A DNA stretch of 62,739 nucleotides, filler included, from Asterionella formosa (lineage: Eukaryota), in NCBI GenBank assembly GCA_002256025.1. It is 5 parts of 5 records of this genome, joined end to end, with 100 filler letters (N's around TTAATTAATTAA, not from the genome) between each part and the next. Parts side by side here need not be neighbours in the genome. Positions count along the whole stretch, not along the records: positions 25,160 to 37,623 come from NKIB01007498.1; positions 37,724 to 50,183 come from NKIB01007502.1; 3 more parts are not named here. The stretch is one strand, 5' to 3'. Each line of letters opens with the position of its first letter. Position 1 is the stretch's first letter. The position numbers were made by a program, and so were the translations under genes. The notes beneath the pieces were generated by a model. That model was not told where the DNA came from. It did not search any database and saw nothing but the letters and a program-made list of their open reading frames with translations. Below, piece after piece: positions 26,391 to 50,803 of the stretch.

Positions 26391-27049
26391 AGTATCAGTA
26401 TAGTTCTGTTGCTCCCCTTCATCCATGATCAATGGTCATGTTGGCAAATAAAGAGTATATGCTCTGTGCATACAGGATCTGAAGTATCAATGAATGACAG
26501 GACTGTCAAAGGATAAACCAGCTGATATACATTCAGCACAAACGCAATCAACTTGTTTGTCAATCCAATATTGTTGAATCTGGTGTAGAAGGTGTAATTT
26601 CAAATGGTCTGTATCATCTTGAACATATTGATCAATAATAAGCGCATTTACTGGTGTTAGACAGCAAATATTGATGGTACCCATACTTTTCAGTGTGCTT
26701 GATAAACTGAGCCCTCATTCCTTTGTATTTTCCTTTAGTGATCACTATCGTTGAGACATTGTCACCTTTTGTACGTTTGCTGCAGTCTTCAATTGTATTG
26801 GACGTGATAAGTTTAATGGCGTAGATCGATTTTCGGTTGAGTTCAGTTGAGTTCATAAATATGTGCGACTGAATATATTCTTTGTACATATCTTCCTGTC
26901 AACACTTTGCGCATGCAAATGCAAAATATCGCGCATGCTCATCGTAGGGCTTGTACGTACTCGTAGAAGGACAGACCAGAGGAGGCGGATCAGAGGGCTT
27001 TAGGTACATCCATACGTCTTGGTTTTTGCTTGGAACAGCAATGTTCTGA

Positions 27050-27330
27050 TAATAGCCCCAAATTTAACTCATCCAAGAGGTTTTGTCAATACATCTGCCA
27101 AGTTGGTGTCAGAGCATACGTGTTGAAATCTTACTATATTCCCTGCAATAGCTTCTCTGACCTGGTGATAAGTAAGCTATTGCATTATGCTTCTCTTCAA
27201 CATACTGGATTGCATTCTAGTAATTAGCACCACACTCTGATTATCACCCAACATAAGTGAAGGTCCAGTAAGGGGTACAACAAGCATTCTAAGGTTATAA
27301 CGCATCTCGATGACCATTTCACTGGCTATA
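27050..27330 (-). mobile_element. Ty1/copia RNase H fragment
   Basis: YNLRMLVVPLTGPSLMLGDNQSVV..YHQVREAIAGNIVRFQHVCSDTNLADVLTKPLG. Confidence 0.8.
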
Positions 27331-27529
27331 TGTTCTGCAACCAGTTCAGAGAGAGTGACAAATCAAATTTTAAAGTACGTTAAAACTAAAATAACAATCG
27401 CACTTGTGCCTGGATAGAAAGGGGGGAATATGATAAATTCTAAGGGGCTGATGATGCGCCCAAGGATGATGTTCTTCCAACCAGCCATTCCCATCATGGA
27501 GTGAGTCCCTTCAATGATGGATTGTATCA

Positions 27530-27808
27530 GTGACTCCGATCGTTGTCGTTGTTGATGCTATTGACCACTGCCTTGGGTTGCCTTGAGTTATTCATTATGT
27601 TGTCAGTTGATTCATGTGGTGCTGTTGATTCATTGTAGATGCTGTTTTTCTGATCATCATTGTTGTTGATGTCAATGTGTGCTGCCTCGTCGTTTTTTGT
27701 ATTCCATTCATTGTGGATGCTGTTGGTATGATTATCATTGTTGTTGATGTTAATGTCCGCTGCCACATCGGTTTCTGCATTCCATTCATATATATATATA
27801 TATATATA
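27530..27808. repeat. Degenerate minisatellite followed by (TA)n
   Basis: atcattgttgttgatgtyaatgt..gctgcc and ttcattgtrgatgctgtt recur; (TA)10 at ~27789-27808. Confidence 0.7.
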
Positions 27809-28299
27809 ATTTCATTTATTAAGCGCCTTATTGCTACCCTATGTTTGACAGGGTAGCCAGCAGATATAGCGCTTCCTGGCATACCAAGCCTGGGTTTTTG
27901 TGGGTAAGACTAACCCGCCATGGATCATCCATATGCAGGGAGATGATGGTGGAAAGACTCTCTTGAATGAGAGTAAGGGAATTTCATTTTGTTTTATGTA
28001 GTTTTCTTATATGCCATTCTTTAACCTCGTTTTTCAACAGGTAAAGAAAGTTGTGAGCTTTGTTAGAGATCGAGATGGAGTTGACTGCCCCACAGGAGGG
28101 CGTGCACAATGGTCCCTTGATTCTTGTGGAATAGTGCTGTAAAAATGGTTCAGATACCATTGACCACCACTTTTTGCAATCCTAGCGGAATCCTCAAAGA
28201 GAGAGGCTGCTTTTTCCAAAAACCTTCATTTGGTGCCCCAACAGGCCCTAAGTAAATCTTGGAGAGGTTTCATATCTACTATTTTTCAAACAGAAAGTT

Positions 28300-29720
28300 A
28301 TGCATGTCTGCATTGATTATACAGCCCTGATCACAAGGATTCAACAATGGAAATTCTGCAGGCCTTCGGGTACACTTCAGACAGATCAAGACCTCTTGCA
28401 GGTTTCCACGAAACTTGCTACAGATCTTAACTTAGAGTTGATAACTCATCATGTGCGTGAAGTCCCACCAGGATGATGAGAGTGAGCATGCTCAACTGTC
28501 CTGGCAGGCAAAACTGAATTGTGATTGTGATCAGCAGGCAGGGTTAGTCCGTGAATGTCTTACCTGTGCTCCTCAGAGTAAGGTACCCTACAAACTTCCC
28601 CCAGGACATGCAGCGACATAACAAACTGGAAATACTTTCATTACCAAACACCTGCCACTAGCAGTAAGAAATGCAATGTAAAAAGGGGATATGGAAAGAC
28701 ACATAATCAAGTCAGTAGGGTGGGAAAATTACACTGTCTTTGACAAGGTAGATTGGGGGGCACGCTCATCTGCTGTAAAAACATGGGTGGTTCAAAGATA
28801 ATGACAATTGTTAGAATGGAATTTGACCTTTTGGCAACTTTCCAGAGCAGAAGTAAATATGAGAAATCGGTGGATAATCGGTGTTTCCGGTGCCGAAGAC
28901 TAAACGAGAATTTCAATCATATGCTTCAATGCCCAAAGGCAGCTGCACACAGGGGGAAAATTTGGGAGAATGTTAGGGTATCGGTCTTAATGGGCTCTGG
29001 ATTGTGCTTGTATGCTTGTGATTTCAAGAAGGAATGCTAAAGTGACTGGCAAATTGTGAGCAACTTCGGTGGGATGGCCCAATTCCATCACCTCAGGATG
29101 TTGTTGGAATCTTGACTTTTGAGGCTTATTTAGACCAAATGGACATAGGTTGGGATCAGGTTTTTCGTGGTAGAGTCAGCAAAAAGTGAAATAGTGCAAC
29201 AATGGCTTATGCCAAAGAGAAGTACATTGGTGACCTGCCTCACAATGGCAGCACAATGGATAGTAAAGGTCATACAAGCTTTATGGCAAATGGGGGTAGA
29301 TAGTTGGATTCACAGAAATGAAGAATTTTATGGAAAAACAGAGGAAGAACAACTGACTAAGATGATGATAGAAGTGGATGATAAAATTAGAATACGATAT
29401 GAATTCGACCAATGGCATGTGCAGGAGGGGGACAAATCCTTATTTCTTCTTCCTGTTGAAGTACAAATCAAGCGTCACAACATACATAAAAAAACATCGG
29501 TGGGTGGAATCAGTGGACTTAGCCTACAATGCCTGGCACCGCGCCACCCAAGGTTGCAGGTAACAATGATGAAGCTCGGCTTCGCCTCTCTTGATTATGG
29601 ACAAACATGAAGGCAAGCGTCCAAGGGTAAGGAAAGAACAAACATGAATGTGGTTGGAGTGTCTTGCAAGAGGGCACAAGTGCAATTTTTAGTTAGTTTA
29701 ATTAGTTTAAATGTACTTTA
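28300..29720 (+). mobile_element. 3' part of a non-LTR retrotransposon (Ambal/L1-like: RNase H plus zinc finger), decayed
   Basis: VKSHQDD..LSWQAKLNCDCDQQAG; CFRC..ENFNHMLQC; QMDIGWDQVFRGR; LWQ..W.HRN. Confidence 0.7.
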
Positions 29721-31417
29721 AATTTAATTTGTGAAATACAACAACTAACAACGGAAGTGGAACAATTTGAAGTCACTGGTATTCGACTCCGACAATATCT
29801 CCATCAGGGCTCTATTGTGTTGTCTTTGGAGTTCCTGTGACCAGGTGTTAGAAATTTCTACCCGTACATCATTTTGTGCCATGAATTGCCTTTAGTTTGT
29901 AATCCAGATTGGCGTGAGATATAGTATCTTTTTGCCAGGATGCATCATCATATCTTCAGTTCTACCAGATTCAAGTTTAGAGGCTCTTATCGATAATATT
30001 CTAGCTAATAATATTAGAGATTATGTATTGCGGGGAGCGGCAAAGAAGTGGAGAGTAACCCAGAGCGAGCTTGCCGATTTCATATGGAATGGTTCTGATG
30101 CACTCTTTCCGATGAATCAGACCATTGAACGCACCAACAAGGCACCTTTAGATTACATCAAATCAACATTTGGTGGCATGTGCATTAAAAAGTTGAGAGA
30201 ATGTCAGAATGTATTGAATAATCAATTAGAAGGAATGTTAGGTAAGTTCTTGCAGGGAGATGCTCCCAAAGCATGATGTTTTGATTATCAAATATGTTTC
30301 AATTTTAAAATGCCAACATAATTCATGGCACACCAGCTGGTCTAACAGAATAAAACTTCCAGACTATGGAAAGATATTGATTACTTTATTCTGTGGGTGT
30401 TCACGCTTTATCGTTTTGCGCAGTCAAAGGATACCAAGTTTGCAATGATGTTCTTGCTCCAGTGTACTTTAAAGGCAGGACAAGCCGTGGAGAACCATTT
30501 CTAACAGGAGACAAATCTGGTGTGACCAAATTTCACTTTAGTTTTCGGGCACGTGCGAATTGCAATCACGTTTGGTTGGTTCCCTGCTCAATGCTAGTAT
30601 AGAAGCATTTTGCTTCTTGGTGCGGCTGAAAGGAAGATTCTGATTGCACAAAAAATATTTGGGTTCCAATCCAGATACCCATGAATTTTCAGAGAACGAT
30701 ATTTGTCATTCTACCGATTTTGTCGACATTGGTGGGAAACCGCTTATCAAAAAAAGTGTGAGGGAAGAAAGTTCAGTTTCAAATAGTATCACTGATCAAT
30801 GGGCTGATGATTTATTTGTATATAATAAGGAAATGTACTGGACTTTCACAAAAGAATCGATCTGAATATGAAAGGAATCCTAGTGGAACTGCTACTTCCA
30901 CCACAAATATCAGCCATCTACCCACACTCATACTTCTCATTTCCCAACGTAAGTGAAGAGGATATGAATCAATATGTTGAAACACTTGAACCAAATGTTC
31001 ATGAGAAGAATATTGATTATAATGACCGCATTAATCAACGGGACATTGATGACGATGTTGATTTTGAATGGATCTAATAGAATCCAATGCATATTTAGTT
31101 ACATAATAAATATAGTTAGTGAGACTTCTACAGTGCAAACCATATCATAAATGTTAAGAAAACATTGACGTTGCTCTATACTAGTAGTGCCGTCTGTACT
31201 AGTATATGTAGCGGTATTCCTCCATTTTTACTACAATGGTGGAGTGATAATTTCATGGCTCTGTATTATCCAGCACAGCACCATGTTCGGATTGATGCCA
31301 AATTTATGATTATTTATTCATTATCATTCTATCCTGTTCATCTCCTGACTTGGCCATCATTTGAAATTCATTTTCATTCTATCCTGCTCATGTCATGACT
31401 TGGTAATCATTTGAAAT

Positions 31418-32390
31418 TTGAAATGTCTTTGCGGACATTGCAATGTTGTTATCTGTGTAACTAACAATTTCGGAAGAACAAATCCCCATCCGAGTCTCAC
31501 AATCGAAAATGTGGCTGGTCACTATCAACATTGCATGCAAGAACATCGTGTTTCTGGAATGAAACTATGTATTGCGGTAGTGCATCGAATCATTCAAGGA
31601 AAGAAGTTAATTGCAGTGTAACTGCTGCAGCATTTAGGGAGAGTAGACAACAAAAAGAGATTATGTGTCTTATCCTTGAATCAAGTGGCCAAAATCATCC
31701 ATTTCATGACGACAGCGACGATTCAGTTTATAAAAATACTCAGATACAACAAGACGAGCAATTGAGACAAAAACCTCTCCAAGGGTTGAATTCAGAAACC
31801 ATGCAATATTCAGATTTTCAAGATCGCACCGGCTTTCTCCCTGAAAATGCAATGGAAATGCCCCTTCCTCCTCAATTTCAACTTCCAAGTAAACATTCCC
31901 TAAACATGCATCCAATCGAATTAGAACTCATGTTATTCCTCAACGAGAATGAGCTACCTTCCACCAGTTTACTTTGATCATCTAATGAATTGGCTGTTCA
32001 AGGCAAAAGCAATGAAATATTTTGATGGAAGGCAGGTATCAAGCTCCATCATACCAGACTTTGAAAAACGCATGGATATTTCATTTTCACTAACATTTGC
32101 TGGTGGTCAACTGTTGACCAAACAAATACAGATTGATAACAGTTCAAACATGATCATCCCACACACACTCCATTACTTCGAACCAGTACAGCTCATGGCA
32201 GGATTGTTACGTGATTCCGATATCATGCAACATTTTGTATGTCACCGACAAGTGAAACTTACAACTTGTGGAGAACGCATGCATTTATGACAAAGTAACT
32301 TCTGCGACTTGGTTTGAAAATGCATTCAACGATTCTCCTGCATCAGAAAATGGAGTGTTGAAGAAGGGTGTTTATTTGCTGCCTGAAATG
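31418..32390 (+). pseudogene. N-terminal part of a Plavaka-like transposase
   Basis: ELMLFLNENELP..FDHLMNW..HYFEPVQLMAGLLRD..SATWFE; its end overlaps the start of the catalytic region seen at 44092 (- strand). Confidence 0.55.
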
Positions 32391-33323
32391 AAAATTCATA
32401 AACGCATGTTTTTCGTTCCTTAAAAAATTCAAATGAAATGGAAATTCATGAACTTATGTTTTTTGCAGGAGGAGACACCATATGCAATGATACAACTGAA
32501 TTGAGCGTTGTTGAATTTCATAACATACGTTTGGCAGCATTTGTTGTACCTGCTTTGAAACCACAGAAATCAAGGGAATCTCTGAAAGCACAAGAAGTTT
32601 TGGAATTTTTATGTGACCATACCTCCACATCGCTCATTTATGAAAATCAATTGGGTGTGACAAAAAACTAACAAGCGAACGTTGATAAAGATTCAAGAAT
32701 AATAAAAATGATAGTGATAATGTAGTTTCACATACTAGTTCAGTTATTAGAAGGTTTTCAAAAACTAAAATGTCCTGAGAAATGATGAGATTGGATGATC
32801 CAAATGGTCCATTATTTGTTCTTTTTCACTCCCAAAGAAGTAACCTAAGATGGTCCTTCTCGTTTTGTCCGAAATTTTTCTTCTCCACTTTTCAACTGCA
32901 GTTCGTTATGAGTATGTAAATTATTTTCAATTTGATTCCAGAAGGGCTATCATCAGTTACAAATAGTTTTTCAACTTTTTGTCAATTTTGATGCATCCAT
33001 AAAATTGGCCAAGAGGTAGACGGTTATACCATCTGAAGGGAGCAACTTTTTCATTCATTTATTGGATCATGGATTTCACCTTGACAACATCATCCTTTTT
33101 TGGAAGATGAATTGCAAGGAAGACATCCAAATACTTCGTTCAACATTTTTAAATCTAAATAGGAGCTCAAAATTTTGTCGATACAAAATTGAAGAACAGC
33201 TATTTCCAACTGAAACATATACTCATGAATGTTTGTCGTTGTCACTTGAGGCTAAACTGTTCCAAGATGGAAGTATTTTGACTTGGTTGGTGGGTCAGAT
33301 GTGACAGAAAAAAATCGTCTCTT

Positions 33324-34728
33324 CTATCTGTTGCTACCACCTGACGTTTTAAATTTTTTCAGGACTCCGTCTCCAAACGGAATTGTGCCCGGCCGGTTGC
33401 CAAGAAACTTGGTTTTCCCATTCTTTTCTAGTTGCAATAGAGCTTCGAATACTTTCACAATTGTAAATGGTCCACATGACCATCCACTATAATCTTCTGG
33501 TGGAAATAACATGGAATCATGTTCTGTTGCCATCATGATCTGCAAGGGTGCTTTGGTGCCAGTATAGAAAGATTCCGATAAACCAATTTCTTCAGGTGTA
33601 TGGTATTCCTTGTGGAAGATATCCGCCCTGTATCGGTGCAAAACAACTCCAATTGTTTGGTTCATCCAGGGATGATGCAGTACTTATGGGCAAGGTGAAA
33701 TACTTGATCATAATGTTCATCCAAACTTGCATCTTTTCCTGGATCACGGACTTGACATAATCCATCATTTATAGCAAATCGATAATGCACAAATGGTTGT
33801 TTTCCTCCTCATATGATATTTTGCAAATAAACAATTAGCACATAGACTAGTTACTGTCATGATGAAGTGGCTGAATGACAATCACCTTGGTATATAGACG
33901 GTTTGTTCTGCGTTCTCATCCAAATCAAATATAACCTTTACATCACTTGGATGAAGTTCATGTATATATAGAAACGAGGTAATTGTTTCAAGGTCCCAAT
34001 ATGCAAGTTCTTTAGAATCTGAAGATGATTTTTTAATATACCTTTGAGTCCATAAAATACAGAGGCGTAATTGCATATTTCTTGTGGGGTACATGTGTAC
34101 AAATCTTTCCACAATTTTAGTTGTCCATGCGTTTTTGGTAAATTCAAGGAAAATGCAGTTTGCTTTGGCATAATAACTCTACACATTTCACATGCCGACT
34201 CTTCACAAAAGTAGCTGCCTTCGGGATTGCTCTTGATGATTTTACAGAGAAATTCTTTTTCTTCCATGTATGATTTGGAAAAAGATTCAATTTTATGCTT
34301 CAAACTTTGTTCCTGACTCAGTGCATCAGCTGCCTTAGCCAGCATCACATCTCAGTCTGCATTGATCTTCTTTAATTCGAGGTCTTGATCTAGCGCACAC
34401 CGACTTTTTCTTGAATATCTTTTCTTTTAGAAATTCAATAGTTTCTCTGCTTTCATGATGTTCATCTTGATGTTCTGGACAAATAGTGAGACATATTTCT
34501 TGGTTTTGCAACTTTTCAACCATTTCTACTTCACAAGTGATGCATGTCTCCCACATTTCCGCCGATATTTTCATTTATCGCATGAGCTTGTTCATCGAAT
34601 GAATGAGAATCACTGAGTTCTTCTTCATTATCAGCGATGTCAGGAGAACGAGCAAAATATGACACAGGATGGAACTGTGACTCTGTAGGAATAGAGTCTT
34701 CATCTGCCAAGAACAACTGTTCTGCCAC
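33324..34728 (-). pseudogene. Possible Ulp1/C48 cysteine peptidase remnant
   Basis: TVYIPR*LSFSHFIMTV ... CIIDLL ... PPEDYSGWSCGPF gives His-Asp-Cys order across frames. Confidence 0.45.
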
Positions 34729-35694
34729 TCTTACATCGGCATACTTAATTATTTTTATGGATTATTATGAATCTGTTCAAATTCATCTGATCTTTGAGTG
34801 TATTCAAAGGAATCTTCGACTGATTTCATAAGTTTCTTCATCTTCTTTTCCGAAAACATAAAGTCGGGTAGTGTCAAACAACGGAAGTAAGTCACGTTTC
34901 TTGTTTGACTGATCCTTTCCATGAAATCCATGAAATGCCATTTGGAAAGGTTTCAAAGGGCCAGAAGACCATGATGTAGACGAACAGCGGAAGAGAAATG
35001 CGGAGCTTGTGGAGTTGCAGCTGGTGTGATGGTAACCGAGTGTAGCAATTGTTGAACAGAGCACAGTGTAATATGCATGTTGATCCAGCATAGTGTTTAA
35101 ACAATATATATAAATAAATAACAAGGAAAAACGACACGATGATGAACGTGATGGCTAATTGTGGAGGATACCGGTATGTGATATGCATCAATCTATATCA
35201 CAAGTCATATAATGGTGATGTACATATCATCGCATCCATATACTTAGATCCTATTTACTATATAATACTATCATATTGAATACTCGCTTTTACTGTGGTA
35301 TACATTAAACGACAAACACATATATAAATTAACATACTTTATGATTGCTTGATTTATTTTCTATGATGTATTGATAACACTTGTGTACATATTATATCGT
35401 ATTTTATTATCATTTTTTTTTAACATGATCATATTTTGATTAAAAATATATCATAAACATTTTAAGAAATCATCATAGTTCTATGATCAATGTATCATAG
35501 CTATGTGAGAAACATCATTCAATATTACGTATCATAGTATATTGGTGCTGTATGTATTGAAGTAACCCTATCGTAATATCACATTGTCATCTTATCAATC
35601 ATTCAATGTTAATTGGGAACTGTATTCTGCATTGTACTATGGAGTGTGATATTATAACACGCATTTTGGTAGCTAAGTCACTGCTGTAATGTAC

Positions 35695-36210
35695 ACAAGT
35701 CGACAGTTTACATACACACACATGCTAAGCAGGTTTGAGGCAACGGACAGTGGTTCCAACGAGCAAATGACGATATGGGTACCAATTTTTCCAGCAACTA
35801 ACCACAATGATGAAGGACACTTGTCACTTTATTGATGATGACATGGACACCGGCTTTTCCAGGAGCAAACAACAATGAAGAGACCCATTTGTCGTTCTAT
35901 TGATGGTAACAAAGATGCGGACAAGTTCAACAGTGAATACAAGAACAACATACCAATGAAAACAAGTTGACAGTGTGTATACGCGCACACTAAGAAGGTT
36001 TGAGGCAACAGACAGTTCTAACAAGCAAATGACGATATGAAGATTAAATTTTTCCTGTGGCAAACCACAATGATAATGATGAAGGACATTCGTCCCTCTA
36101 TTGGGCGAGTTTTCCATGACCAAACAACAATGAAGAGAGCCACTTGCTTTCGCTCTCTTGATGGTAACAAAAATGCGGACAAAATCAACAGTGAATACAA
36201 GTACAGCATC
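35695..36210. repeat. Diverged ~270-bp direct duplication
   Basis: ggtttgaggcaacrgacagt, accacaatgat and ttgatggtaacaaa.atgcggacaa each occur twice. Confidence 0.75.
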
Positions 36211-37340
36211 CCAAATGCGGAAACGAGCAATATGAAAAAGAAATTGTAATTTCTATAACTATAACTATGTGGACAGCAGTCTGTTACATTTTCGTATCTC
36301 CTTCTATGCTAAATTTCAATAGTGGATGTAGTATCATGTGAGAATTGAAAATGTCAACAAAAACAAGTAGAATGTTTTTGATTTACGAGTTGATTGGCGA
36401 GATTGTATTGCTGGCGGTCAACGAAACGGATTTACCATGTGCACTTTGTGTGGAACCATTCCGAGTTCAAATGATTTCTTCTCTGTAAACTCTTAATTGA
36501 ATGATTATGACCATAGGTTCACTGCACATGATGATAATTCAAAGATTTAAATATTCCTTAACCAACAAGAATTGAAGATGTTATCGCAAACAATCATTCC
36601 ACTTGTCATTGCTAGTATTTCGTTGTTGTTGCAAAAATCGGAGTGATGATGGATGGAGATGACAAGCCAAATTACATTAATAGGTAGTGTGCCTGGATTG
36701 TTTAGCTTCCTATTCAGGACCTTTGGAATTTCCAAGGCATTGACTGGTGCCTTTAGTCAAGATGCATGAGACAAAGACTTTTGAGATATGGTAGAAATTT
36801 CTGCTTCAACGCCGTGGTGGAGTTTCCTGTTAACTCAGTTCCAAAGACTGCGGAAGTTGATGATCTTGTATTGGAGGCAATCGAGAGGAACTGAATGACC
36901 CTGTGTAATCAATGCTTGGACCAATGTATTCACTGTACTGTTTGTGCGCGTCACTTGAGATACCATCTTGTTGACAGTTTCTGTGGTCTCTTGCGCCTGA
37001 AGAGACGCCATTTTCTGCAGAGAGAGTAGCTGGTTAAGAGTAACATCAAGTCTCGTCTGCAATGCTGTGTTTGATTGGTTTTGATGGTTTTAAATTACCT
37101 AACACAGTCCTCCATCCTTTTGTACATAGCTCAGTATTTTGAGTTGAATCTGTCGTCAGAGCAGTACCCTGGGATGAGGAGCCAATGGTCACAGACTAAG
37201 CCCATGATTTCATTGGCTGTATTTGTGGAAACGTCCGATGTAACTGAATTTCCAGTGATGCTCCTTGTCGGAACCATTGGAAGCTTTTTAAACCTGGTTC
37301 GACACGCTGCAACTATCTTTTAGCATAGTAGATCCCCCAA

Positions 37341-37607
37341 TGTTGAAATTGCGTCCCGAAGCACTCTATGCTTTCTTGTATCCTGTAAGGACACGTCAGG
37401 GACCAAATAGGCTGTAGATATGAACAACGATGTCTCCGCATTCGATTGTAATCGTTCCTAAGAGTTTTAATAGAATTATGGGTTTTTACTGTTGGCGTAG
37501 ATTGTTTTCGAATTCTCTGGTACCATATTCTTTCTTGATTCATTCGATTCAATATGTAGTAGGTAATTTATACCGGGATTTTCTTTCCTAAAATATTTTC
37601 TCCAACA
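37341..37607 (-). repeat. 3' LTR of a second B-family copia element (internal part lost at contig end)
   Basis: Reverse complement of the 6324-6599 LTR; preceded on the - strand by PPT-like CAGCAGGAGTG; no TSD. Confidence 0.82.
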
Positions 37608-37723
37608 CACTCCTGCTGGACACNNNNNNNNNNNNNNNNNNNNNNNNNNNNNNNNNNNNNNNNNNNNTTAATTAATTAANNNNNNNNNNNNNNNNNNNNN
37701 NNNNNNNNNNNNNNNNNNNNNNN

Positions 37724-38740
37724 TGGTTTCCAAATAATGGAACTGATTCTGAATATGGCTTTTGTGATTGGGATTACATTACTTGCAAGAATGGGATCAA
37801 TATCACTCATTTGAAACCTTCCGAGTCTCAACTTAATGGATCTCTTCTTCCTGAGATCGGACTCTTAACAAGTCTCATGTATTTAGATTTGTCAATGAAT
37901 GCTTTCAATGGCACAATTCCCACAGAGATTGGACTCTTGACAAGTCTCAATTATCTAGATTTGAGTGTCAATACCTTCACTGGTACATTTCCCACAGAGA
38001 TTGGACTCTTGACAAGTCTCACACATCTATCTTTGAGTCGCAATAATTTCACTGGCACACTTGCAACAGAATTTGGACTCTTGACAAGTCTCACACATCT
38101 ATCTTTGAGTCGCAATAATTTCACTGGCACACTTGCAACAGAATTTGGACTCTTGAAAAGTCTCAATTATCTAGATTTGCCTGTCAATACCTTCACTGGT
38201 ACAGTTCCCACAGAGATTGGACTCTTGACAAGTCTCACAACTCTATCTTTGAGTAGCAATAATTTCACTGGCACACTTGCAACAGAATTTGGACTCTTGA
38301 CAAGTCTCACAGCTCTAGATTTGCTCTTCAATATTTTCACTGGCACAATTCCCACAGAGATTGCACTTCTCACAAATCTCACATTTCTAGATTTGTCCTC
38401 CAATACGTTCACTGGCACAATTCCCACAGAGATTGGACTCTTGACAAGTCTAACAACTCTATCTTTGTACTTAAACATTTTCACTGGAACTCTTGCAACA
38501 GAATTTGGGATGTTGAGAAGGCTCAGTATTCTAGAATTGTACTCCAATAATTTCACTGGTACACTTTCCTCGGAGATCGGACGCTTGTCACTTCTTGTGG
38601 TTCTAGATTTATCTTTCAATACCTTCACTGGGACGGTTCCCACAGAGATTGGAAACTTTTCAACTCTCCTTTTTTTAGCTTTAAGGAACAATTCATTCAC
38701 TGGTACAATCCCTGCAGATTTCGATAAATTTACTCCATGA
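37724..38740 (+). CDS. C-terminal part of an LRR receptor-like protein (about 12 LRRs of 24 aa)
   Basis: Open frame of GTIPTEIGLLTSLxxLxLxxNxFT units; first 231 bp identical to 49953-50183. Confidence 0.9.
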   Translation, partial: WFPNNGTDSEYGFCDWDYITCKNGINITHLKPSESQLNGSLLPEIGLLTSLMYLDLSMNAFNGTIPTEIGLLTSLNYLDLSVNTFTGTFPTEIGLLTSLTHLSLSRNNFTGTLATEFGLLTSLTHLSLSRNNFTGTLATEFGLLKSLNYLDLPVNTFTGTVPTEIGLLTSLTTLSLSSNNFTGTLATEFGLLTSLTALDLLFNIFTGTIPTEIALLTNLTFLDLSSNTFTGTIPTEIGLLTSLTTLSLYLNIFTGTLATEFGMLRRLSILELYSNNFTGTLSSEIGRLSLLVVLDLSFNTFTGTVPTEIGNFSTLLFLALRNNSFTGTIPADFDKFTP

Positions 38741-41700
38741 GTGTGGCTAATATGTGTGATGCTCAGAATTTCAACCCCATATAATGCAGCAATATAAGTT
38801 AGGACTCATATTTGGTCTCATTTTGCTAATATAACAGTTAATAAATAATGTACATTAAACATCTATTATTATTTATTTATTAATCAAAATCAAGTATTGA
38901 AAGAATATTGCAGTGCAGTGTGGGCGCGTGGGTGAACGTACCGTGTCATACGGTACAGTGTACTAACTACCCGTTAGAGTGCTTTAGCGATAGTACAGCG
39001 TACCAGCTTGGACAGCGAATGCGCTAGAATGGCATAGGTATATACATCTTTAAGATTATGTTTTCAACCTTTATCTTTCTTTCCTTTTGCATGTTTTCAA
39101 TCTTTATCTTTCTTTCCTTTTGCACCATGTAAGTTGTTCTGCCGACCACGCTAGCGTATTTATTCGGTATGTAGCACTTGTTGTTTTGGATAAGATTCGG
39201 ATGCCAGGGCAATAGCATCGCACAAGTTTTTGTAAAGAACTATATATGGTTCAATAAATACTTTCTCTCCTCTTATGTGCAATATTTTTTCTCAAGTAAT
39301 TTGTTTTTCATAAAATATTTTTTAAGCCTATATGCAGGCCAACTATCAACTAAAATTCATTGGGATCAATTATATTGGGTGCGCTTGGAAAATTAAAAAA
39401 TGATATATCATTTGTATGGTAACACAGTTATTGTACTCATAGCCCCACAATTTTTGTTTGTGTCGACAAAATTTAGAACCTTTGGTTTACACCTTGGATG
39501 TGTAAACCGGAGTTACTAAATTTTGTCAACACGAACACAAAATTTTTAAATGTTAGAAATAACAGCGCAAAATATAGAAATATGTTAGTCCATGTTTGAT
39601 TTGTGAACAAAATTCTTTAATCAAATTAGTATTATGTTTCATGCCATGGAACTTTGCCATTCTTAATCCAATTTGAGATACAATCTCTCTTTGAGGACCA
39701 TCCATTCTTGTCTTTGTAACAGACATGAACCTGTTAATTCTTTCTTTCAAAGTTATCATAAAAGTTTATAAGAATAGCCCACTGCTTTTCATTGAAAAAA
39801 AATGGTTCAAACATTTTGAGCTCGCCGTAGAAAATGACGTCTCTTTTTGTTGCATTGGGGAAACTATGGAATTAACATTTGAATTTTTTTCCTGCAGAAT
39901 TGTAAACCTTTTTGACATTATAAGATCTCGAAGGAAGCAGACATGTGCTCTCAACCTATTCAATGGGTTGCTTCAATTTCTTCCTCGATGTAACTATGTC
40001 TTCTAGTGTAAACCCAAATAGACTATATTCTTGTCTGTCATTGTGAATGTTCTTGTTGTGTTCCATATCAACGAAACGAATTTCCGCCATTGTTCCTTGA
40101 TGAAAGATGAAAGACACCAATCAGAGGGGGTCTGTAAATAAAAAACCGTTAGGCCTAACAGTTTTGCTGTAAGACCCACTGCCCCAAAAATTCTCAGTAT
40201 GACATACCATTTTTTGATTGATCATACAAAAAAACCGATTGATCATACAGAAATACTGATTGATCATGCAAAGAAACTGATTGATTGATTAATATTGTAT
40301 CATTGATCTTACGTATGCTTAGAATAGATCATATGCATATCATGTAATATCTAATCGATTGATTAGACTGCATTTGTAACATTAACAACGAAGCACGACA
40401 TTTAGTATACACTCATCATATATATATCAATGCATTTCAAATCGATAGATCATAAGATATGCTTATGATCAATACAGCACTCTTACCCTAATTATCAACT
40501 AACGTTTTGGTGTTCGATCTAAAGATAGTATTCGTGAGATCAAATCAGTTATTCATTCGGTATAACCTTTGGAATGCTAATATCGAATAGAATTTTTAGC
40601 TTTTGATCTAATGTTCATTACTCCTGATCTAACTAATTTCTCTCATTGATCAAACCTATTATCATGTTCGATCAATGATGAACACAAATCGAATTAAATT
40701 GATTGCTATTTAATACTCAAATATTCTACTTCTGGTCCCATAATATACTTTCCACTGTGCATCCTCTATCATAATGAGCACACAGTGGTCTTCAATACCT
40801 TATTTTCACTTCCGGTATGGTAGCTATGTTGAGATCATTGCCCTTTTTCAAAATGAAATGAGAGAGTAAACGAAATTGATAATGTTTTATTCGAACCTCT
40901 ACCATTGCGAATGGCAGCAAGTCACATTCTCCAATGTTCTTGTACGACTCTCCTGTAAGAGAAAATAACAACAATGTTAGCAAAAATGGTGCATCAAGTA
41001 AGCAGGGCATCTAAACGTAGATATGCGCAACAAAACAATCACATGGACAATCCATCACTCCAAGTTCCGTATGAGCACCAGGCAATGTGCATATTACCTA
41101 CCTGTGCTCTCATGGTTGATTGTTGCTTCCATTAAGAATGGTAGCAAGCCACATTCTCCAAGGTTCCTGTATAATTTTGAGGAAATAATATCAATGTCAG
41201 CAAAATTGTTGCAACAATTAAAGCATCTCCAGCCAAAAGGAAACCGGAATTGGGCCCTGATATGTAATGACATAAACAATCTATATAGCTTCACGTTCCA
41301 ATCGACATAACAAGCAAACATGAAATGAGAGTATGGCAACTTACCTATGCTCTCACTGTTGATTGATGATTGATGGGTGACAGGTAGCGTTGTTAACCCT
41401 CACATCTGCATATATGGAAGGGAAAGATGTTATTAATGTCAAAATCCTAATTAATTGACACAGACACTACAAACCCTCTGCAGCATGCATTGTGCACAAA
41501 GATATTTAGTGCGGTTTCTTACCTCGTAATTAGGTTGATTTTTATCGTTCGTCCTGAGGAAGTATAGAAACTTTGAGTGGCAGGCAGCAGTGCACACGAA
41601 CAGCGATACAATTTTTTAGTTGGCTTCCGGTCTCACATGGTACTACCGACCATAAGCCCCTTGGTAGCCACAGTTGAGAAGCAAAACAATCATATAACTA

Positions 41701-42636
41701 ACCTCTTCCCACCGGTTGGATTGATACCGGTAGAAGGCTCTCGATCACCATTCCCTCATCAGTTTGTTATGTGGAATAGAAGGCATTAAAAGATTCAGAT
41801 TCTGACAATGATGATATTTTGTCAGAACTGTCCTCTCCTGGTAACAACAAGAAGGTGGCGCCTATTTATCCACCCATTCAAAGAAGGAGTGACGATTCAC
41901 TAGTCACTGATAAACCAAAGACAAATATTGTGGAGTTTCATCTCGATAATGGGGACAATCTCAAACATATATCACAGTTCCGCCTTAGTCGTGAAAGAGT
42001 GATTGATCAGAAGCATCATTATCCGTTGTTGTTTTATGTTCAACAACGTCATAATAAGATTGCTCAATTGGAACGCAAAATTTCCCTGAATAACTCTTCT
42101 ATCAGTGGATACAAAGATTCCAGCCTTGCCACTACTGTTTATACAAGACAAAGGGATATAGTTTCATCGATAACTTCCTCTCATGCAACCGAAGTAGTTG
42201 GTGAAATATTTCATACTAGAAAATTTTGTCATACCCAGGTTAGTTCATGTATATATTTAAATCTCCTCAAATCACCTTTTTTTGATATCGTTACCAACCA
42301 TTTTTACTTTCATTGTCCTTACAGTCTTACCAACATCCTGCTGAAACATATTTGCCAAGTAGTATTGTAATATCAAGTCCAACTAGTCCATGGTATGCAA
42401 GATTGAGCATTTCGTTCTTGTTGAAACGTCATCCCGAAATCGCTCTTGCCGTTAAGGATGATTCTAAATTGGCGGATTGCATCTGGAATGGTGTTGAAGA
42501 ATTTTCTCATAGAGGAACCGATTTCCTATCTGTAAAAAGTGCTAAGGAAAGAAAAGAGTACTTTGACCATACATTTGGAGGAATGTGCATTAAACCTATT
42601 TATTACTTCCAATTGACATTGAACCATTTCATTCAT

Positions 42637-44092
42637 TCAGTTTTGAGTAAGTTTATTTTGATTCCTCCTTATTGTGTGTTTCTCCCAGTTCACTTCGACC
42701 CAGTCAAGCCATTCACGACCAGAGATTTCTTTATTTGAATCATCATTCCATTTCGGAAGGCATCTGAAAATAGTAGTTTGGCCGGGAACTTTCTTTTCAA
42801 TTTCAACATGATAATAAAATTCAATCCTTACAATGGAAACAGGCCCAACCCCATCTTCAAGAATTTTTATTCTTGCTATTTCTATTGCTGAATTCGCAAT
42901 GCTCTTTACATAATAGTTAATAGGCATAATCCAGAGATTTCTTGGCCTGACATTTTTGACAAAGCTTTTATCCCAGATCTGTATGACAATTTTGAATTAT
43001 CATGATCGCTTTACCTTTCCAAATGACTACTGATATATCTAGCACTTTGTTCGAAGTATAGTTTCGAAAATACATTTCTGGTGCTGGTACAAGTGTTGGG
43101 TCTTGATTTTTGCCAGTATAGATATTTTTGATAACTGGTGCATGTGTCCTTTTTGGTCTTTGCCCGTTTCTTCGGTTGCTCTTGATCAAGAAAAGCAGAG
43201 TCTGTTGTTTCAGTGTTACGTATATGATTTGAGATGTTTTCTGGAATATCTGGAGATTTTCTTTCTTTAAAAAAACATGTCCATTCTTCAGGGATAGTCC
43301 GAGAATTGTACAAAGATTCCAAAATGTACTTAATTATTCCAAGTAGTAAATGATGAAGAACCTCAAATCGAGTTGCACCAAATAATCCTTCTAAGTCACT
43401 TCCAAAAATATAGTAATGATTTATTAGTTCTGGCTTAATAGGATTATGCGATATAACACGGCACCACTTGTGTGCTGTTGAGTATTTGCCATTAAATTGG
43501 GAGACACAATACTCAGGTCGGATACATGGCAATTTTACATTGGGATATGCAATTTTTTCAAGAAACTTGTTTAAAAACATTTTAAACATCTGACACTGTA
43601 CAACGTTCACGTCCAATATCAACATTATTAGCATCTTCAGTTGAAACCAGGAAATCACGACAAACATATTGTCGATATAATCCATTACCAATGATCATTC
43701 CAATATGGAAAAAAACTTTTGTAATACCAAGACCATGAATCCAAATATTGTATGACTTGTTTGGATCGCTCTTTGAAATGCGACAATAGAAATCCTGTAA
43801 CAGAATGGTATAATTTGAGGCTACATAAGGAGGACAAGTCATCACCAGATAACTTATTATTCATTTGTTTCTCCAGATCACTGACTTCCATGTCTGGCAA
43901 CAGAGAAAACAATTGCCATCCATCAACTTTTTTCCTTCCTTTCAACATTAAGTTTAACATTGCTAGCAAAAACGGATGCTTGGAATGTTTCATTTCTTTA
44001 TCAAAAGGTGAACCATCAATGAAAACTGCCAGGGCAACTAATAAACACCCTGTCTCCAACACTCCATTTTTTGATGCAGGAGAATTGTTGAT
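42637..44092 (-). pseudogene. Plavaka/EnSpm-related transposase catalytic region
   Basis: ALAVFIDGS...HPFLLAMLNL..RKK..WQLFSLLPD; LYHSV..LL; GMIIG; FGATRFEVLHHLLLGIIKY; frameshifted. Confidence 0.7.
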
Positions 44093-45294
44093 TGGGAAAC
44101 GAGAAGTATGAGTGTGGGTAAATGATATTTGTGGTGGGAGTAGCAATTCCGCTAGGATTTCTTCCATATTCAGATCGATTCTTTTGTGAAAGTCCAGTGT
44201 AGATTTCCTTATAATAAACGAGTAAATCAATATCATCAGTCCATTGATCAGTGAGACCATTTGAAACTGAACTTTCTTCCCTCACACTTTTTTAATAAGT
44301 GGTTTCCCACCTATGTCGACAAATCGGTAGAATGACGAATTTCGTTCTCTGAAATTTCATGTGTATCTGGATTGAAGCCCAAATATTTTTGTTGCAATCG
44401 AAATTTTCCTTTCAGCACCAGCCAAGAAGCAAAAGGCTTTTGTACTGGCATTGATCAGCGAACCAACAAAACGTGTTTGCAATTCACACTGTGCCCGAAG
44501 ACTGAGTTTGAAGTTTGGCTTGGTCACACCAGATTTGTCTCCTGTTATAAATGGTTCTCCACGGCTTGTCCTGCCTATAAAATACACCGAAGCAATAACC
44601 TCACGCCAGACTTGCTTTGTATCCATGGCTTCCCCGAGAAAGGCAAATATTGGGCAAACCAATCCTGTTTGTGATTGGAAATGCCTCTAATACTACTTGG
44701 ACCAGATAGGGCGGGAAGTTTGATTCTCTATTGGGAACAGAAACAAGCACATTAGATTGATATCTTTTTACAGTACCTGCAATTCATGATCAAACTTACA
44801 TGTTCACAGCAAACCTTCTTGGTCTTGAAAATAAAACTCACAACCTTTATGACAATCGATGGTTTGGTTCAATTTTTGCTAAGCAGGAACGACGTTCTGA
44901 TAAGGCTGCTGAAATTGAAGAGTCTTGATAACCTCGTTTGGATGAGTGGGTTGCTTTGCATAATCGCCTATTCGCTTTTTCTTTGTTAACTCATTTTGGA
45001 ACTTGCTTCTTTGTTCCATACCGGCAGTATTTGCCACATGTCGCTTGTTTCTATGAACCTTTTTATGGATTCTTGAAGACATTGTACTAGTAATAGATAA
45101 CTGTTATTGTTGTCTTACTTAAAGTTCAATGATCTTACATTCAGGTGTTGCTGGTTACAATGAAATGAATCATCAGCCACTACAAATAATATTTTACGCT
45201 GTCTAGATATGATGATACCAAAAGACCAACAGTGCTATTTGCATTATCATATACAAAATCAGGACTAATTTTGAGTAAAAGCTTATCTTGTTTT

Positions 45295-45640
45295 TAATCA
45301 TACGATTATACAATCCTAAAACTATGATGATTCACTGTCCCATGGTAGTAGCTACAATCCCGAACATATGGTCGTGTTTTGTCACTTGCTTACTACTCCG
45401 ACTACCCCTTTTCAGTTTTACAATCATACGATCCTGAAACTTTGATAATTTACTGTCCCGCTGCAGTAGCAGCAGTCATGAACATATGGTGCTCTGTTGC
45501 TTGCTTACTACTCCGACTATCCTTTTTCAATTTTATGATCATACGATTCTGAAACTATAATGATTTAGTGTCCCACTGCAGTAGCAACAGTCATGAACAT
45601 ATGGTGTTTTGTTTCTTGCTTACTACTCCGACTACCCCCC
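45295..45640. repeat. ~117-bp tandem repeat, 3 copies
   Basis: atcatacga..ctgaaact..tgtccc..gtagc..gaacatatggt..ttgcttactactccgacta repeated. Confidence 0.85.
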
Positions 45641-47286
45641 GTATATCACTTCCTATCTGCTACTGGTAGCTACTCTGTGTATATATATGATAAAAATTTA
45701 TTGTCATATGATGTACCGGTACACATGGAGAACTCCCTCCCGAAAAAGGGGCTTAAACAATTTGATACCAAAACCCTGGCGGTTATGACTTACACCAATT
45801 GACCAAATAATTAGTTTCAACGGACGTAGAAAATATCGATGCAAACAAATTTCAGAAACAATACTGGTATACGTAATTGTGGAAAACAATGGACATATAG
45901 GGCATTGAATATTTTCGAAATATGTATATGCGAAGATGATCATCTCAACAATATCAGATGTTCCATATCGAGAGCGCCTTTGAATTCTATAAATGTATAA
46001 CACTTGATATATATATATAATTATATATTTACAAATTTTATTACTATATCCATGGCATATATATTTTTGAAATCGTTCTGTCATGTTAACAAACAATGCC
46101 TGCTCCATGAATAGATACATCGTAGTAAAGCACATGACAAGAAAAGAAAGTTTACGCAATACATAATAAAAAAAATATTGCGGAATCCACACACTGCGCA
46201 TTCGAAAGATGGAGAATGTTTAAGGTAATGGAGCCATCAATGTGGTAGCTACTTGGATGACAATCGTTGGGAGGCAGGACAACAACAAATTGTTAACTAA
46301 ACGCAGCCATATTTCCTTTTTTCTCAGTTGATTCAGCAGCTCGTTTCGCTTGTTGGGGAGCACCAATGTAAAACAAAACAAAATTGCGTAAATGCTCTTG
46401 TCGCTCGTTGGACCTATTCACTTCTGTTGGAACAAAACTGACAAAACGTTTACCTTCTCTCAAAGTTAAGCTGACAAAAATGAACCGGTAAGTTTTTTTC
46501 GATAACAAATACAGACTTATGCATCCGTTTACTGACAAGTTACTATAACAGACTTATGCATCCGTTGCATTGATTTGTGGTAAGTGAAGCAAGAGGATAT
46601 GATGGAGTTGTGTTTTGTTATGTCAATGTGACATGACTAGCTAACAAATCATTCCTTCTCATTGTTACTGTAACTGCATGCATAGAACAATAAACTAATC
46701 AAACAACGGAATAGTTGTCGAGTTCAGAGTGACACTAACAGCAGGAAAAGAGATGCAACATTAGTTGTCACTACCTCACACCTTAATCAGAATAATATAC
46801 ATTGAGCCAAATAGAGAGAGACAATTCGGGTTGCTGGCCTGTAAAATCATAGATGCCAAGGCTAATTTTGATAGTTAAAGTACAATCCATTTCAATCTAT
46901 TTTGAACAATGCTTGTGATGACCTAAATGATCATGTTTAAGATATATATACGATAAAAAAACTCACATGATAGCATAGAGTTTAGCTGATTTTAGGATAC
47001 ATTGTAGTTATAATTTACATCAGTTGATCACGAGAAGTGAAAATAATATGAGAAGGTTTATGATATTGATGGGAAAAGTTGTTTATTAATTTATATACAT
47101 TGTGTGATGATAATGTTCTTATTATCAACATACTTCAAAGTCGGTAAAATATTACTAAATCATCATAGTAACAAGATACCTTGATCATAGTTTTGATCCA
47201 AAAATTATTATATATACGAAAATCCTGTACCACTTAGCATACGATACCCTTGATCCTATATGCATGATACTTTTTATTTGCAGACA

Positions 47287-47660: not shown

Positions 47661-48704
47661 AGATAGCTGTGTACCCTTTAACCTCATGAGTTAACTTCTG
47701 CAGAGAAATGGCAGTTATCTCCCGTAGATTTTTTATTAGGTTTGTAGCCCAATTTTTGGGATCATTACGATTCCTAAGCAGGGGATAACTGCCATTTCTC
47801 TCCAGAAATGAGGTTCTTATCATATCTGTAGTATATAGATCATACTACCCCTGAGTCAAACAATAACTGTATCTAAGCATATGCAAAGTGGTCGTTTTGG
47901 AGAAACCTATTTTTTCCTTTTACTATTTGATTCAATCATACATATTGTCTTGATTGAGGTAGTACTAGGGGCTGTTAACCGGAGAATTACTGGAGCTTGC
48001 ACTTCATGATTGGCCAAGCTGCTAAGTTTTGGTCAACTTAACATGAACAGAGGGAGTATCATTTTTTACTGCACATTTCAAGTATAGCACATGGAGCACT
48101 TCTTGTTATGGATGAGATTCAGATGCCAGGGCAGTAGCATTGCACAAGTTGTTGTAAAGAACTATATATGGCTAAATAAATACTGTGATGATGTCATCAT
48201 CTTCTTCTGGAAAAAAGACCAGCAAGAGAGGGTGTTGTCTCTTCCTCCTCAACGCTGCGAAAATGTAGCTGTCTCAAGAAAAAATAAGAATTGCAATCCC
48301 AAGATAAGCAGGAGAAAAAAGATGATGCTGACGAAGATGCCAATGATAATGACAGCAGGACTGAAGCCTCTGTGACTCTCTCATTGGTGTCTCTCAGCTT
48401 TCATTAAGGAACAATGGAATAAATTTGTACAAGAGGTGGCATTACATACCAGAAGATGTGTTGATATGAAAATGTACTGATAAAAATTTATATTTACTCT
48501 CAGAAAAGTAATTCAAAATAATTCAAGTATCAGAGCGCAACGGCAATATTATGGATTCTATCTGCAAAAATTAGTTGTGATGTATTCATTCTGTCAAAAA
48601 AAATATTTTTGAATTACGAAGGGTACCCATTTATAGCAGCATGAAATGCTCTGCAGACATTTGAAAAACGAATATCATCGAGGACCCTAACCCCAAATCC
48701 TGAG

Positions 48705-48870: not shown

Positions 48871-49088
48871 AAGTACCGGTAGGATCTTTACGCTCTCCTT
48901 TCTAAGTTTCGGTATTATGGTATATGTATAAAGAAAAACTCTTTTTATCTTCTTTGTTTCTAAGCACGATTTTAGGAGGCCATATGTATTCCGGCAACAG
49001 TAAATCCGCAGAACATTGTTAATTCTGTTTTCTGTTATCTTATCTCTGTTATCTCATCGTCCTTGAAATCGTTCACAATAAGAACAGC

Positions 49089-50183
49089 ATGTCGTCAACT
49101 AACATTCATAACAAGAAGAATGATGATGCTCTCCTCTATGCTCATCAGTTTTTAGAAGAGGCGAAAGAAGAAGAGATGGAAGCCACTGCATTGGAGGATT
49201 CGTCAGCAATGCCTCCTCAAAATGCTGAGTATGTTGGATCCGGCAAAGAAGTCCCGTTTGTAGACGAGGCGAAAGTGAAATACCGAGACCAAAAGAAGAA
49301 AGCCGCATTCGTGTCTCCTGAAGATGACATGGATTTGTCTGATGCCTTTGTTCCACCACTCTCATCCACAGCAGCTTCACCTCGAGGTGCTATGGCAGCA
49401 CCATCACATACACCAGGTACTCCTGGCGCATTTCTAGTAAGAGGACAAGATTTCATTCCCCAGCAAGACTCCCTCATTCTGGAAGATCATGGCCAGCTGG
49501 AACATGAAACACTATTCAAAGCTGTTCTTGTCGATGATACAAAAATTGACAGTGCCTTTGTTGTTGACCTTCAAGCAGAAAGAAAAGCCCAGAATCGACG
49601 TCAAGGGAGAAATACCTTGATGTTCATTTTGGCGATTGGCATCTTAGCTGCTGTCATTGCTATTCCCATTCAGCTCACAAGACCAAAACCATCAACAAGC
49701 CCAACATTGGCTCCATCAGATAATCCATCAGCAAGTCCTTCTCAAAGTGCGATCGGGTTCTTGGCTGGACAATCATTGGATAATGAAGCAGCACTTTCAA
49801 CTCCTGGCTCCTCACAAGAAAGGGCACTGACATGGTTGAAGCAATCAACACTAAATAATAGTCCCAGAGACTATACTTTTTTGCAATTCTATGCCTTGGC
49901 AGTGTTTAATTATGCAACTGGTGATCTTTTAAGACACACAAGTAGTAAATCTTGGTTTCCAAATAATGGAACTGATTCTGAATATGGCTTTTGTGATTGG
50001 GATTACATTACTTGCAAGAATGGGATCAATATCACTCATTTGAAACCTTCCGAGTCTCAACTTAATGGATCTCTTCTTCCTGAGATCGGACTCTTAACAA
50101 GTCTCATGTATTTAGATTTGTCAATGAATGCTTTCAATGGCACAATTCCCACAGAGATTGGACTCTTGACAAGTCTCAATTAT
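49089..50183 (+). CDS. N-terminal part of a type II membrane LRR receptor-like protein
   Basis: Acidic N-terminus with TPGAF; TM segment LMFILAIGILAAVIAIPI; P/S/T stalk; QERALTWL..YALAVFNY..CDWDYITC cap; LRRs cut by the contig end. Confidence 0.9.
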
Positions 50184-50803
50184 NNNNNNNNNNNNNNNNN
50201 NNNNNNNNNNNNNNNNNNNNNNNNNNNTTAATTAATTAANNNNNNNNNNNNNNNNNNNNNNNNNNNNNNNNNNNNNNNNNNNNACCAACCAGAAACGCTT
50301 TTTTCATGAGGAGAGGCAGTGACCTAATAAAGTTTGGTTGTAGACGAACAGAGGGAGTTACCAGATACCGGTAAGTAAATAATGTGATGTATATGAAATA
50401 TGCTCAGATATGGATATAAGATGAATCTCACAAAGTTTTCATGAGATGCACCTTTCGTCGCAACGACAGTAAAAATTAATAGTATAATAATATACAAAGA
50501 AATATCTTTTGTGCTTTGTAATTGCCGCTCACATTTCGTGAAGGAGATTCACAAACGATTTTGAATGCTAGAATCTGTTCTATGAATTTGATTCTACGCC
50601 GCAAGTAATACGAGAGGAAGTCTTGTAAGCAAGTCGATTGAAATTGAATTGGCTGAGACTGAATACGTGGCAAAATGCTGTGAAAGTATTGCGAAGGTTT
50701 TTTGAGTGCATCGCTCATTTAGCCATTAAATTCTACAAACGAAGCACTCGGCCGATAGCGCTACTTCCTTTCACTACATCCATCGCAAAAGCAAATCTAT
50801 GAG

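Follow-up and report, generated by a model that had tools for sequence, protein, structure and literature searches.

Two transposon copies on separate contigs

The window analysed here comprises 62,739 bases of the Asterionella formosa assembly GCA_002256025.1 and consists of five separate contigs of this one assembly, split by runs of N (a fixed spacer) into pieces of 12,486 to 12,456 bp each. Contig 3 (25160-37623) carries a transposon copy designated A, and contig 4 (37724-50183) carries copy B, which is made up of fragments B1 and B2. Judging from sequence comparison, A and B1 are very probably dead remnants of one large (at least 10.5 kb) transposon family of the Plavaka lineage, related to EnSpm/CACTA elements, in which a transposase is accompanied by two further genes, here called gene 1 and gene 3. 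A first-pass annotation of this DNA had proposed a Plavaka-like family in two copies on different contigs, and the N spacers confirm this placement.

At the nucleotide level, contigs 3 and 4 have only two stretches in common. Positions 30435-30947 (+) match 44614-44092 (-) with 85% identity over 529 bp, and 32323-32383 match 44094-44033 with 89%. The longer stretch covers "block 2", one of two conserved protein blocks pointed out in the first-pass annotation, and adjoining sequence. More complete relatives were found among ten metagenome loci (L001-L010), taken out of 116 pattern matches in a scan with an alignment of the other block, "block 1". Two of them, the marine-metagenome contigs L002 (10,792 bp) and L004 (7,912 bp), share 7.7 kb at 99.2% identity. 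Both window copies are colinear with L002 and L004 at 85-93% nucleotide identity, so that the parts missing from each window copy become visible.

In L002, a 5' non-coding region with tandem repeats (1179-2412) is followed by gene 1 (2470-4340), by the transposase gene (4651-8157) after a spacer of ~310 bp, and by gene 3 (10438-8276), which lies on the other strand and is convergent with the transposase. The 5' inverted repeat of the element reads GTCTGYAAATARAAA, and the ~2.2 kb of non-coding DNA behind it contain tandem repeats as well as subterminal repeats of TGATCA type. Relative to L002, both L005 and contig 4 hold 627 bp extra that reach the terminal motif, in agreement with loose ends in the RNA-library contigs; the summed parts of L002 and this extension give an element of at least 10.5 kb. 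The order gene 1, transposase, gene 3 recurs in copy A, L002 and L004 and is partly kept in B1, L001, L003, L005 and L006, which bears out the earlier proposal of a large multi-gene element.

Copy A begins inside gene 1 and lacks the 5' end of the element together with exon 1. By tblastn of spliced L002 gene 1, exons 2-3 (L002 residues 233-558) were located at 30016..31074 (+), with block 1 at 30064-30252 (+), a GTAAGT donor at 30243 (three-frame reading) and block 2 at ~30471-30529 (+). Gene 1 is broken here by stops and frameshifts, nucleotide identity to L002 3276-5625 being 87%. The N-terminal third of the transposase (residues 1-333, including the zinc-finger start) follows at 31399..32383 (+; tblastn with the L004 transposase, 77-81% amino acid identity). 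A 2.2-kb deletion with its junction at 32383/32412 removes the catalytic core, L002 5625-7871 having no counterpart, and the last ~64 codons (residues 1084-1147) are found at 32414..32605 (+; tblastn, 81% amino acid identity). The gene 3 remnant (residues 1-721) occupies 32843..34968 (-; tblastn, 86% nucleotide identity to L002 7871-10792) and contains six in-frame stops plus frameshifts. A 3' non-coding part spans 34969..35500 (+), with L002 homology up to 35274, where L002 ends, and with TGATCA-type motifs at 35426 and 35484. All components formerly assigned to 29.9-35.6 kb (blocks 1 and 2, transposase N-terminus, opposite-strand open reading frame, ORF) are thus in place, but the "Ulp1-like" label of that ORF is confirmed by no profile or fold test.

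On contig 4, B1 runs along the minus strand from a 5' terminal inverted repeat (TIR; GTCTGCAAATAAAAA, 47271..47285), the family terminus, through a 5' non-coding region (45083..47270; 86-92% nucleotide identity to L002 1182-2608 and L005 2064-3930) with ~115-bp tandem repeats at 45291-45640, into a gene 1 remnant (44091..45082) of which residues 1-45, 155-228 and 347-516 are left according to tblastn. Block 1 is deleted from this remnant, and block 2 lies at ~44517-44575. A 1.35-kb deletion has fused gene 1 with transposase residue 316. The transposase remnant (42680..44089, residues 316-718 and 974-1051) is the catalytic region which had been predicted for this contig. It keeps the first Asp and the Glu of the catalytic site; a deletion of 14 codons has removed the second Asp, and CxxC is changed to CxxF. 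Further damage comprises a frameshift at ~43770, a 0.77-kb deletion and truncation at 42680. Since A has no catalytic core and B1 is truncated and has no second Asp, neither copy would be able to move itself.

B1 is abutted by B2 (41790..42681, +), a 0.9-kb gene 1 fragment (part of exon 1 plus exon 2) of a second subfamily, 92-95% identical to L008-L010 at the nucleotide level and 33-36% identical to L002 gene 1 at the amino acid level. The block 1 of contig 4 (42463-42657, +) belongs to B2, and its similarity to block 1 of copy A is detectable at the protein level only (37% over 65 aa, E 3e-8). L008-L010 agree with each other past both B2 breakpoints, and B2 is therefore an internal fragment, cut on both sides. 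The opposite strand and the 37% amino acid identity of block 1, set against 85% nucleotide identity for block 2, show that contig 4 is a mosaic and not one copy with both blocks. Both blocks do occur at 40.1-47.3 kb as annotated, but block 1 sits there on the other strand, in a fragment of another subfamily. The adjoining stretch 40130..41789 (strand not assigned) has no match to other family members. It starts with a 15-nt terminal motif, behind which stand about four TGATTGATCAT subterminal repeats, and may be an element end, without link to B1 or B2. A further, older Plavaka transposase fragment (residues ~763-812) is present at 39598..39855 (-), outside the 40.1-47.3 kb stretch first annotated, with 76% nucleotide identity to L002 6916-7039 and 69% amino acid identity.

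Transposase

By profile and motifs, the predicted transposase is a Plavaka transposase. Its frame in L004 spans 1,177 codons with one internal stop. The 351-aa core of L004, which is 89-93% identical to B1 at the nucleotide level, scores 59.1 bits (E 5.7e-16) on PF18759, the Pfam Plavaka profile with a gathering cut-off of 26.3 bits, and covers profile positions 43-318 of 325. Among ten relatives retrieved from databases (432-1,376 aa; P-numbered entries are database proteins), Plavaka is listed for eight, six of which pass the cut-off, and the original Plavaka-like assignment is thereby upheld. On PF18759, P0098 reaches 59.3 bits and P0099 50.6 bits, their identities being 46% and 44%, each over 96% of the query. 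P0101 (71.6 bits) and P0103 (66.1 bits) are more partial or more distant relatives. From its residue 4 on, P0099 aligns to L002 4654-8154. A CxxC...HxxxC zinc-finger start is common to L002, L004, P0099 and P0103. The first Asp, the second Asp (IIGDTE), the CxxC motif (CRDC) and the Glu are conserved in L004 and its relatives in alignment A3, in which an H(3-4)H motif was not located.

HMMER search with the 198-aa window ORF 43688-44281(-) retrieved 48 proteins at E <= 0.001, 47 of them fragments of at most 201 aa; the only long one, P0045 (841 aa), scores 173 bits on Pfam Plavaka. This query is a chimeric frame in which residues ~1-63 are the end of gene 1, out of frame, and its matches count for the transposase only at residues 64-198. 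A separate protein search with 43014-43694 (-) returned no match. The whole 896-aa L004 ORF (L004 2475-5165) has no Pfam match even at E <= 10; since the 351-aa core does score, the miss of the long ORF is most likely a filter artefact, and profile scans can wrongly come back negative when an ORF is long and compositionally biased. Across the transposase, RNA depth falls to 0 in bins 5401-6840 of library X24, which consists of assembled contigs and is silent on expression.

Gene 1

Contigs of four RNA libraries were placed on L002, and joints in gene 1 occur in three of them (X24, X23 and X22). X24 is a polyA library from the same sample as the best-matching DNA run, itself labelled "algae metagenome". 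The host, a eukaryote, has short GT-AG introns. Word shares in freshwater, riverine and lake runs are small and provide no evidence of habitat.

All three runs contain GT..AG joints from 3075 to 3159 (83 nt) and from 3472 to 3584 (111 nt). When both introns are removed, a single open frame of 569 codons results, so that gene 1 consists of three exons and its product, counted from the first Met, is 558 aa long, with a basic N-terminus. Block 1 corresponds to exon 2, and exon 3 begins with block 2. The blocks had been taken for two accessory genes; the intron that links them in one frame in three RNA runs makes them parts of one spliced gene. The second intron is absent from database proteins P0057, P0076 and P0069. 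The intron acceptor of copy A corresponds to ~30348 and not to 30423, and block 2 does not pair with the IGGSAKG segment of P0076.

For block 1, the databases yielded 49 relatives (E <= 0.01) among 201 candidates, and they fall into two main groups. The second subfamily (L008-L010 and P0076) is colinear with gene 1 across three exons at 33-39% amino acid identity, and colinearity of two subfamilies across all exons argues for a gene 1 protein under constraint. No relatives of gene 1 are detectable outside this transposon lineage.

Gene 1 is most simply a gene separate from the transposase, since RNA contigs pass its stop codon (L002 4338-4340) and continue unspliced to 4451. Maize En/Spm encodes TnpA and TnpD, and by analogy gene 1 could represent the 5' exons of one transcription unit that yields the gene 1 protein and the transposase by alternative splicing. 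Its position directly upstream on the same strand, with a stop ~310 bp from the transposase start, would suit this arrangement, and 15 of 45 joints on L002 are listed. A link from gene 1 to the transposase is found in none of these 15 joints, however, the RNA contigs run through the stop as described, and the transposase has its own Met beside the zinc finger, where P0099 and P0103 start too. We consider such a common unit improbable. A reading of blocks 1 and 2 as N-terminal exons of the transposase is not retained, in view of the stop, the RNA contigs and the starts of P0099 and P0103, which contain neither block.

Gene 3

Gene 3 encodes ~720 aa. Its frame is open over 729 codons in L002, with a Met at codon 10, and in L004 it is open up to the contig end. 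RNA-library contigs span it at 8265-10058 without joints. In L002, residues in the order His...Asp...Gln...Cys-Gly-x-Phe can be read by eye. This resembles the pattern of clan-CE (Ulp1-type) proteases, and the His-to-Gln spacing of ~97 residues is presumably longer than in Ulp1. We put forward as a hypothesis that gene 3 might encode a Ulp1-like clan-CE protease. Searches for PF02902 and other Pfam domains gave nothing at E <= 10 (256-aa and 165-aa domain pieces) or at E <= 0.1 (whole ORF). In a language-model protein atlas, Peptidase_C48 and C57 clusters came up for gene 3 at 0.81-0.83, under the lead threshold of 0.9. Viral contigs scanned with gene 3 contained no relative.

Termini and derivatives

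The 15-nt motif GTCTGYAAATAAAAA occurs in the window at 40130 (+), 47285 (-), 4827 (+) and 5971 (-), that is four times against 0.76 expected; at least four matches were found in 2 of 100 shuffles. The terminus at 47285 is a true terminus of the family. Three observations combine to establish it: homology between L005 and contig 4 stops at 47288; the terminal motif in L005 opens a second copy that sits inside a first one, between its gene 1 and its transposase; and the same motif bounds a 1.1-kb derivative. The unbroken target of the nested insertion is visible in four uninterrupted copies; its junction includes two unexplained bases and its far end lies off the contig. All five termini read GTCTGY. 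TGY takes positions 4-6 of this sequence, and a boundary shifted to its start is conceivable but unsupported. Motifs of TGATCA type recur close to all ends.

Following the first-pass annotation, one element would extend between the GTCTG repeats at 40130 and 47285, with a 2-bp target-site duplication, two accessory genes, a transposase and an Ulp1 gene. Both 15-nt motifs are indeed present in inverted orientation, and they enclose the two blocks and the catalytic region. On the contrary, block 1 is on the opposite strand there, is only 37% identical to that of copy A and has relatives (L008-L010) that run past both its ends; the flanks (GG and AA) reveal no duplication; and 40130-41789 matches no other family member. 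What lies between the motifs is at least two unrelated fragments in opposite orientation, and a single element is very unlikely.

On contig 1, a non-autonomous derivative of 1,145 bp (4827-5971, +) has the same TIRs at both ends, and its interior contains short colinear matches to the 5' region of the family. A second type of derivative is indicated by a joint from L002 4451 to 8265 with non-canonical CT..AT ends, found in X24 (depth 118.8) and X23 (depth 17): a genomic form without exactly the transposase, in which gene 1 and gene 3 are kept. That gene 1 and gene 3 are host genes, placed beside the transposase by chance or carried once, is hardly credible: neither has a recognisable transposon-related domain and dN/dS (the ratio of nonsynonymous to synonymous substitution rates) is not far below 1, but their order and orientation recur in copy A, L002, L004 and the transposase-less form, and partly in B1, L001, L003, L005 and L006, block 1 has its 49 relatives, and gene 1 is kept in the second subfamily.

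Separately, summed RNA contig depth is very high at L002 690-1800 (up to ~3,300 in X24). Two joints of this region, from 1045 to 1117 and from 1312 to 1392, read CT..AC, i.e. GT..AG if the minus strand is transcribed, with joint sides of 22-23 letters, and 1045-1392 spans the point where L002 departs from the canonical element. After removal of the skipped stretches, no ORF longer than 89 codons was found.

Evaluation of the family and its possible mode of action

Several results weigh against the assignment of A and B1 to one large Plavaka-lineage family, or limit its reach. None of the 133 window ORFs of at least 50 aa (28000-49000) matches Pfam Plavaka or Peptidase_C48, the sole match in that scan being a leucine-rich repeat (LRR) gene, and none of five trimmed window pieces matches transposase profiles. 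The Pfam search suggested earlier thus succeeds with the L004 core and fails with the ORFs of the window, and it is by nucleotide identity to L002 and L004 that the window copies are assigned to the family. None of the copies seen is complete with both ends: L002 is cut at 1179 and its contig stops before the 3' terminus. A 3' TIR was not found, either in copy A or elsewhere; nothing detectable is common to copy A past 35274, the right half of the contig 1 derivative and 40130-41789. Neither of the two complete TIR pairs has a 2-bp or 3-bp target-site duplication, the flanks being GG/AA on contig 4 and AC/AG on contig 1; the 2-bp duplication formerly expected was not seen, nor was one intact copy with TIRs, duplication and all ORFs among the copies compared. 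The ends GTCTG..CAGAC correspond to neither of the published Plavaka terminus types (PMC12730594).

As to the accessory genes, gene 1 has no Pfam, NCBIfam or PDB match, its exon 3 has no usable match in the protein atlas, and gene 3 matches nothing in NCBIfam and, at E <= 10, no PDB sequence. The structure predictions that had been recommended for these ORFs were unusable: AlphaFold with the single sequence of the gene 3 domain reached a pLDDT (predicted local distance difference test score) of 34, and fold prediction for gene 1 exon 3 with a 6-row alignment reached 36. Values of dN/dS between copies are 0.2-0.9 with few changes, weak evidence for constraint. The RNA runs are assembled contigs, from which splicing can be read, RNA level and strand not; a rarer splice from gene 1 into the transposase may exist among the joints beyond the 15 listed. 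The functions of gene 1 and gene 3 are guesses.

With these points taken into account, we still regard A and B1 as very probable remnants of a single Plavaka-lineage family. Its transposase would bind the terminal and subterminal repeats and move the element by cut-and-paste. Copies would decay by way of internal deletion, and the transposase-less derivatives and the 1.1-kb miniature would be mobile only with transposase supplied in trans. Gene 1 might, as a guess, be a nuclear accessory factor of transposition. Reasoning by analogy, it possibly binds the element ends as TnpA does in En/Spm, a tentative suggestion. Less likely, gene 1 together with gene 3 counters host silencing, as VANC/KIU do in VANDAL elements. 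More unlikely still, the two genes, with gene 3 as a possible SUMO/ubiquitin-type protease, could form a self-standing module which shields the family against silencing by the host or manipulates the modification of host proteins; such a module would be an algal counterpart of the plant VANDAL anti-silencing genes VANC/KIU, made from unrelated parts.

Comparison with known systems

Like En/Spm, the family has a second protein encoded on the same strand and subterminal repeats that such a protein could bind. In contrast to En/Spm, gene 1 is here a separate upstream ORF that has a stop of its own, and the termini are not CACTA. EnSpm/CACTA elements proper have CAC..GTG ends and a 3-bp duplication; the family described here has GTCTG..CAGAC and lacks a 3-bp duplication.

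Fungal Plavaka elements share with this family a DDE transposase that matches PF18759 and has CxxC between the second Asp and the Glu, cut-and-paste movement and short TIRs (PMC12730594). Their termini are TGT..ACA (PlavakaA) or CATCA..TGATG (PlavakaB), they produce 2-3 bp target-site duplications, which were not seen here, and some families carry an extra gene (TET/JBP) (PMC12730594). The accessory genes found here are not TET/JBP, and the host is an alga-like eukaryote.

The statement that Plavaka is known mainly from fungi is out of date. Red algae contain giant Plavaka elements of 17-19 kb with accessory genes PAG1-3 (bioRxiv 10.1101/2025.02.11.637652), and EnSpm-Plavaka elements were reported from a green alga (PMC12633428). 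As with our family, the red-algal elements are large, carry several accessory genes and tandem repeats and are mostly degenerate, and PAG1, like gene 1, is without known domain (bioRxiv 10.1101/2025.02.11.637652). Unlike in red algae, no PAG2 methylase/SET gene and no PAG3 ParB/oxygenase-like gene was found here, and the element measures ~10.5 kb or more. Since multi-gene Plavaka elements are already described from red algae, the architecture reported here is a variant and not a new kind. A literature search, with Repbase outside its scope, found no paper on Plavaka in diatoms or other stramenopiles.

Plant CACTA and MULE elements are known to carry ULP1-like protease domains (Cactavine, PMC2528002; KIU/VANDAL, PMC13317346), and in some families these are encoded opposite to the transposase, as is the putative protease of gene 3 (PMC2528002, PMC13317346). 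Gene 3 differs from these cases by its lack of a PF02902 match, and if it does encode a protease, this would be an independent acquisition in a distant host.

The family would extend the Plavaka lineage to another algal host, with a distinct terminus and a distinct cargo: a spliced gene without known relatives, seen in RNA libraries, and a possible clan-CE protease. As the pair appears to survive in transposase-less copies, it is a practical candidate for probing the roles of accessory genes in DNA transposons. Genome annotation should treat gene 1 and gene 3 as parts of a transposon and mask them, not count them among host "orphan" genes.

Other features of the window

Contig 4 begins and ends with the same 231 bp (37724-37954 and 49953-50183, 100% identical). 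Both contig ends lie inside an LRR-repeat gene (ORFs 37724-38737 and 49023-50183), and the identity suggests an assembly that looped through a repeat, or two genes in tandem, more than a real circle. The transposon-rich middle of contig 4 is flanked by a direct repeat (39169-39262 and 48091-48184, 89% over 94 bp) and by an inverted repeat (40076-40126 and 48378-48428, 84% over 51 bp).

On contig 3, ORFs upstream of copy A (28744-29607) resemble by eye the zinc-knuckle tail of a non-LTR (long terminal repeat) retrotransposon and have no Pfam match, and just downstream of copy A (35688-36214) there are two tandem units of ~265 bp, 75% alike. Contigs 3 and 1 share an inverted repeat (37341-37607 and 6324-6599; 87% over 278 bp) unrelated to the Plavaka family.

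Copia-type retrotransposon remnants were detected at 9707-11783 and 20029-21111, with RVT_2 at 22 bits (below the cut-off) and 55 bits and with Pol_BBD at 47 bits. A DUF6818 match lies at 1347-1871. Contig 5 carries ordinary eukaryotic host genes at 50759-52324, 56122-56745 (-) and 57985-58563: a purple acid phosphatase, the histone chaperone ASF1 (178 bits) and a NAC protein with UBA domain.

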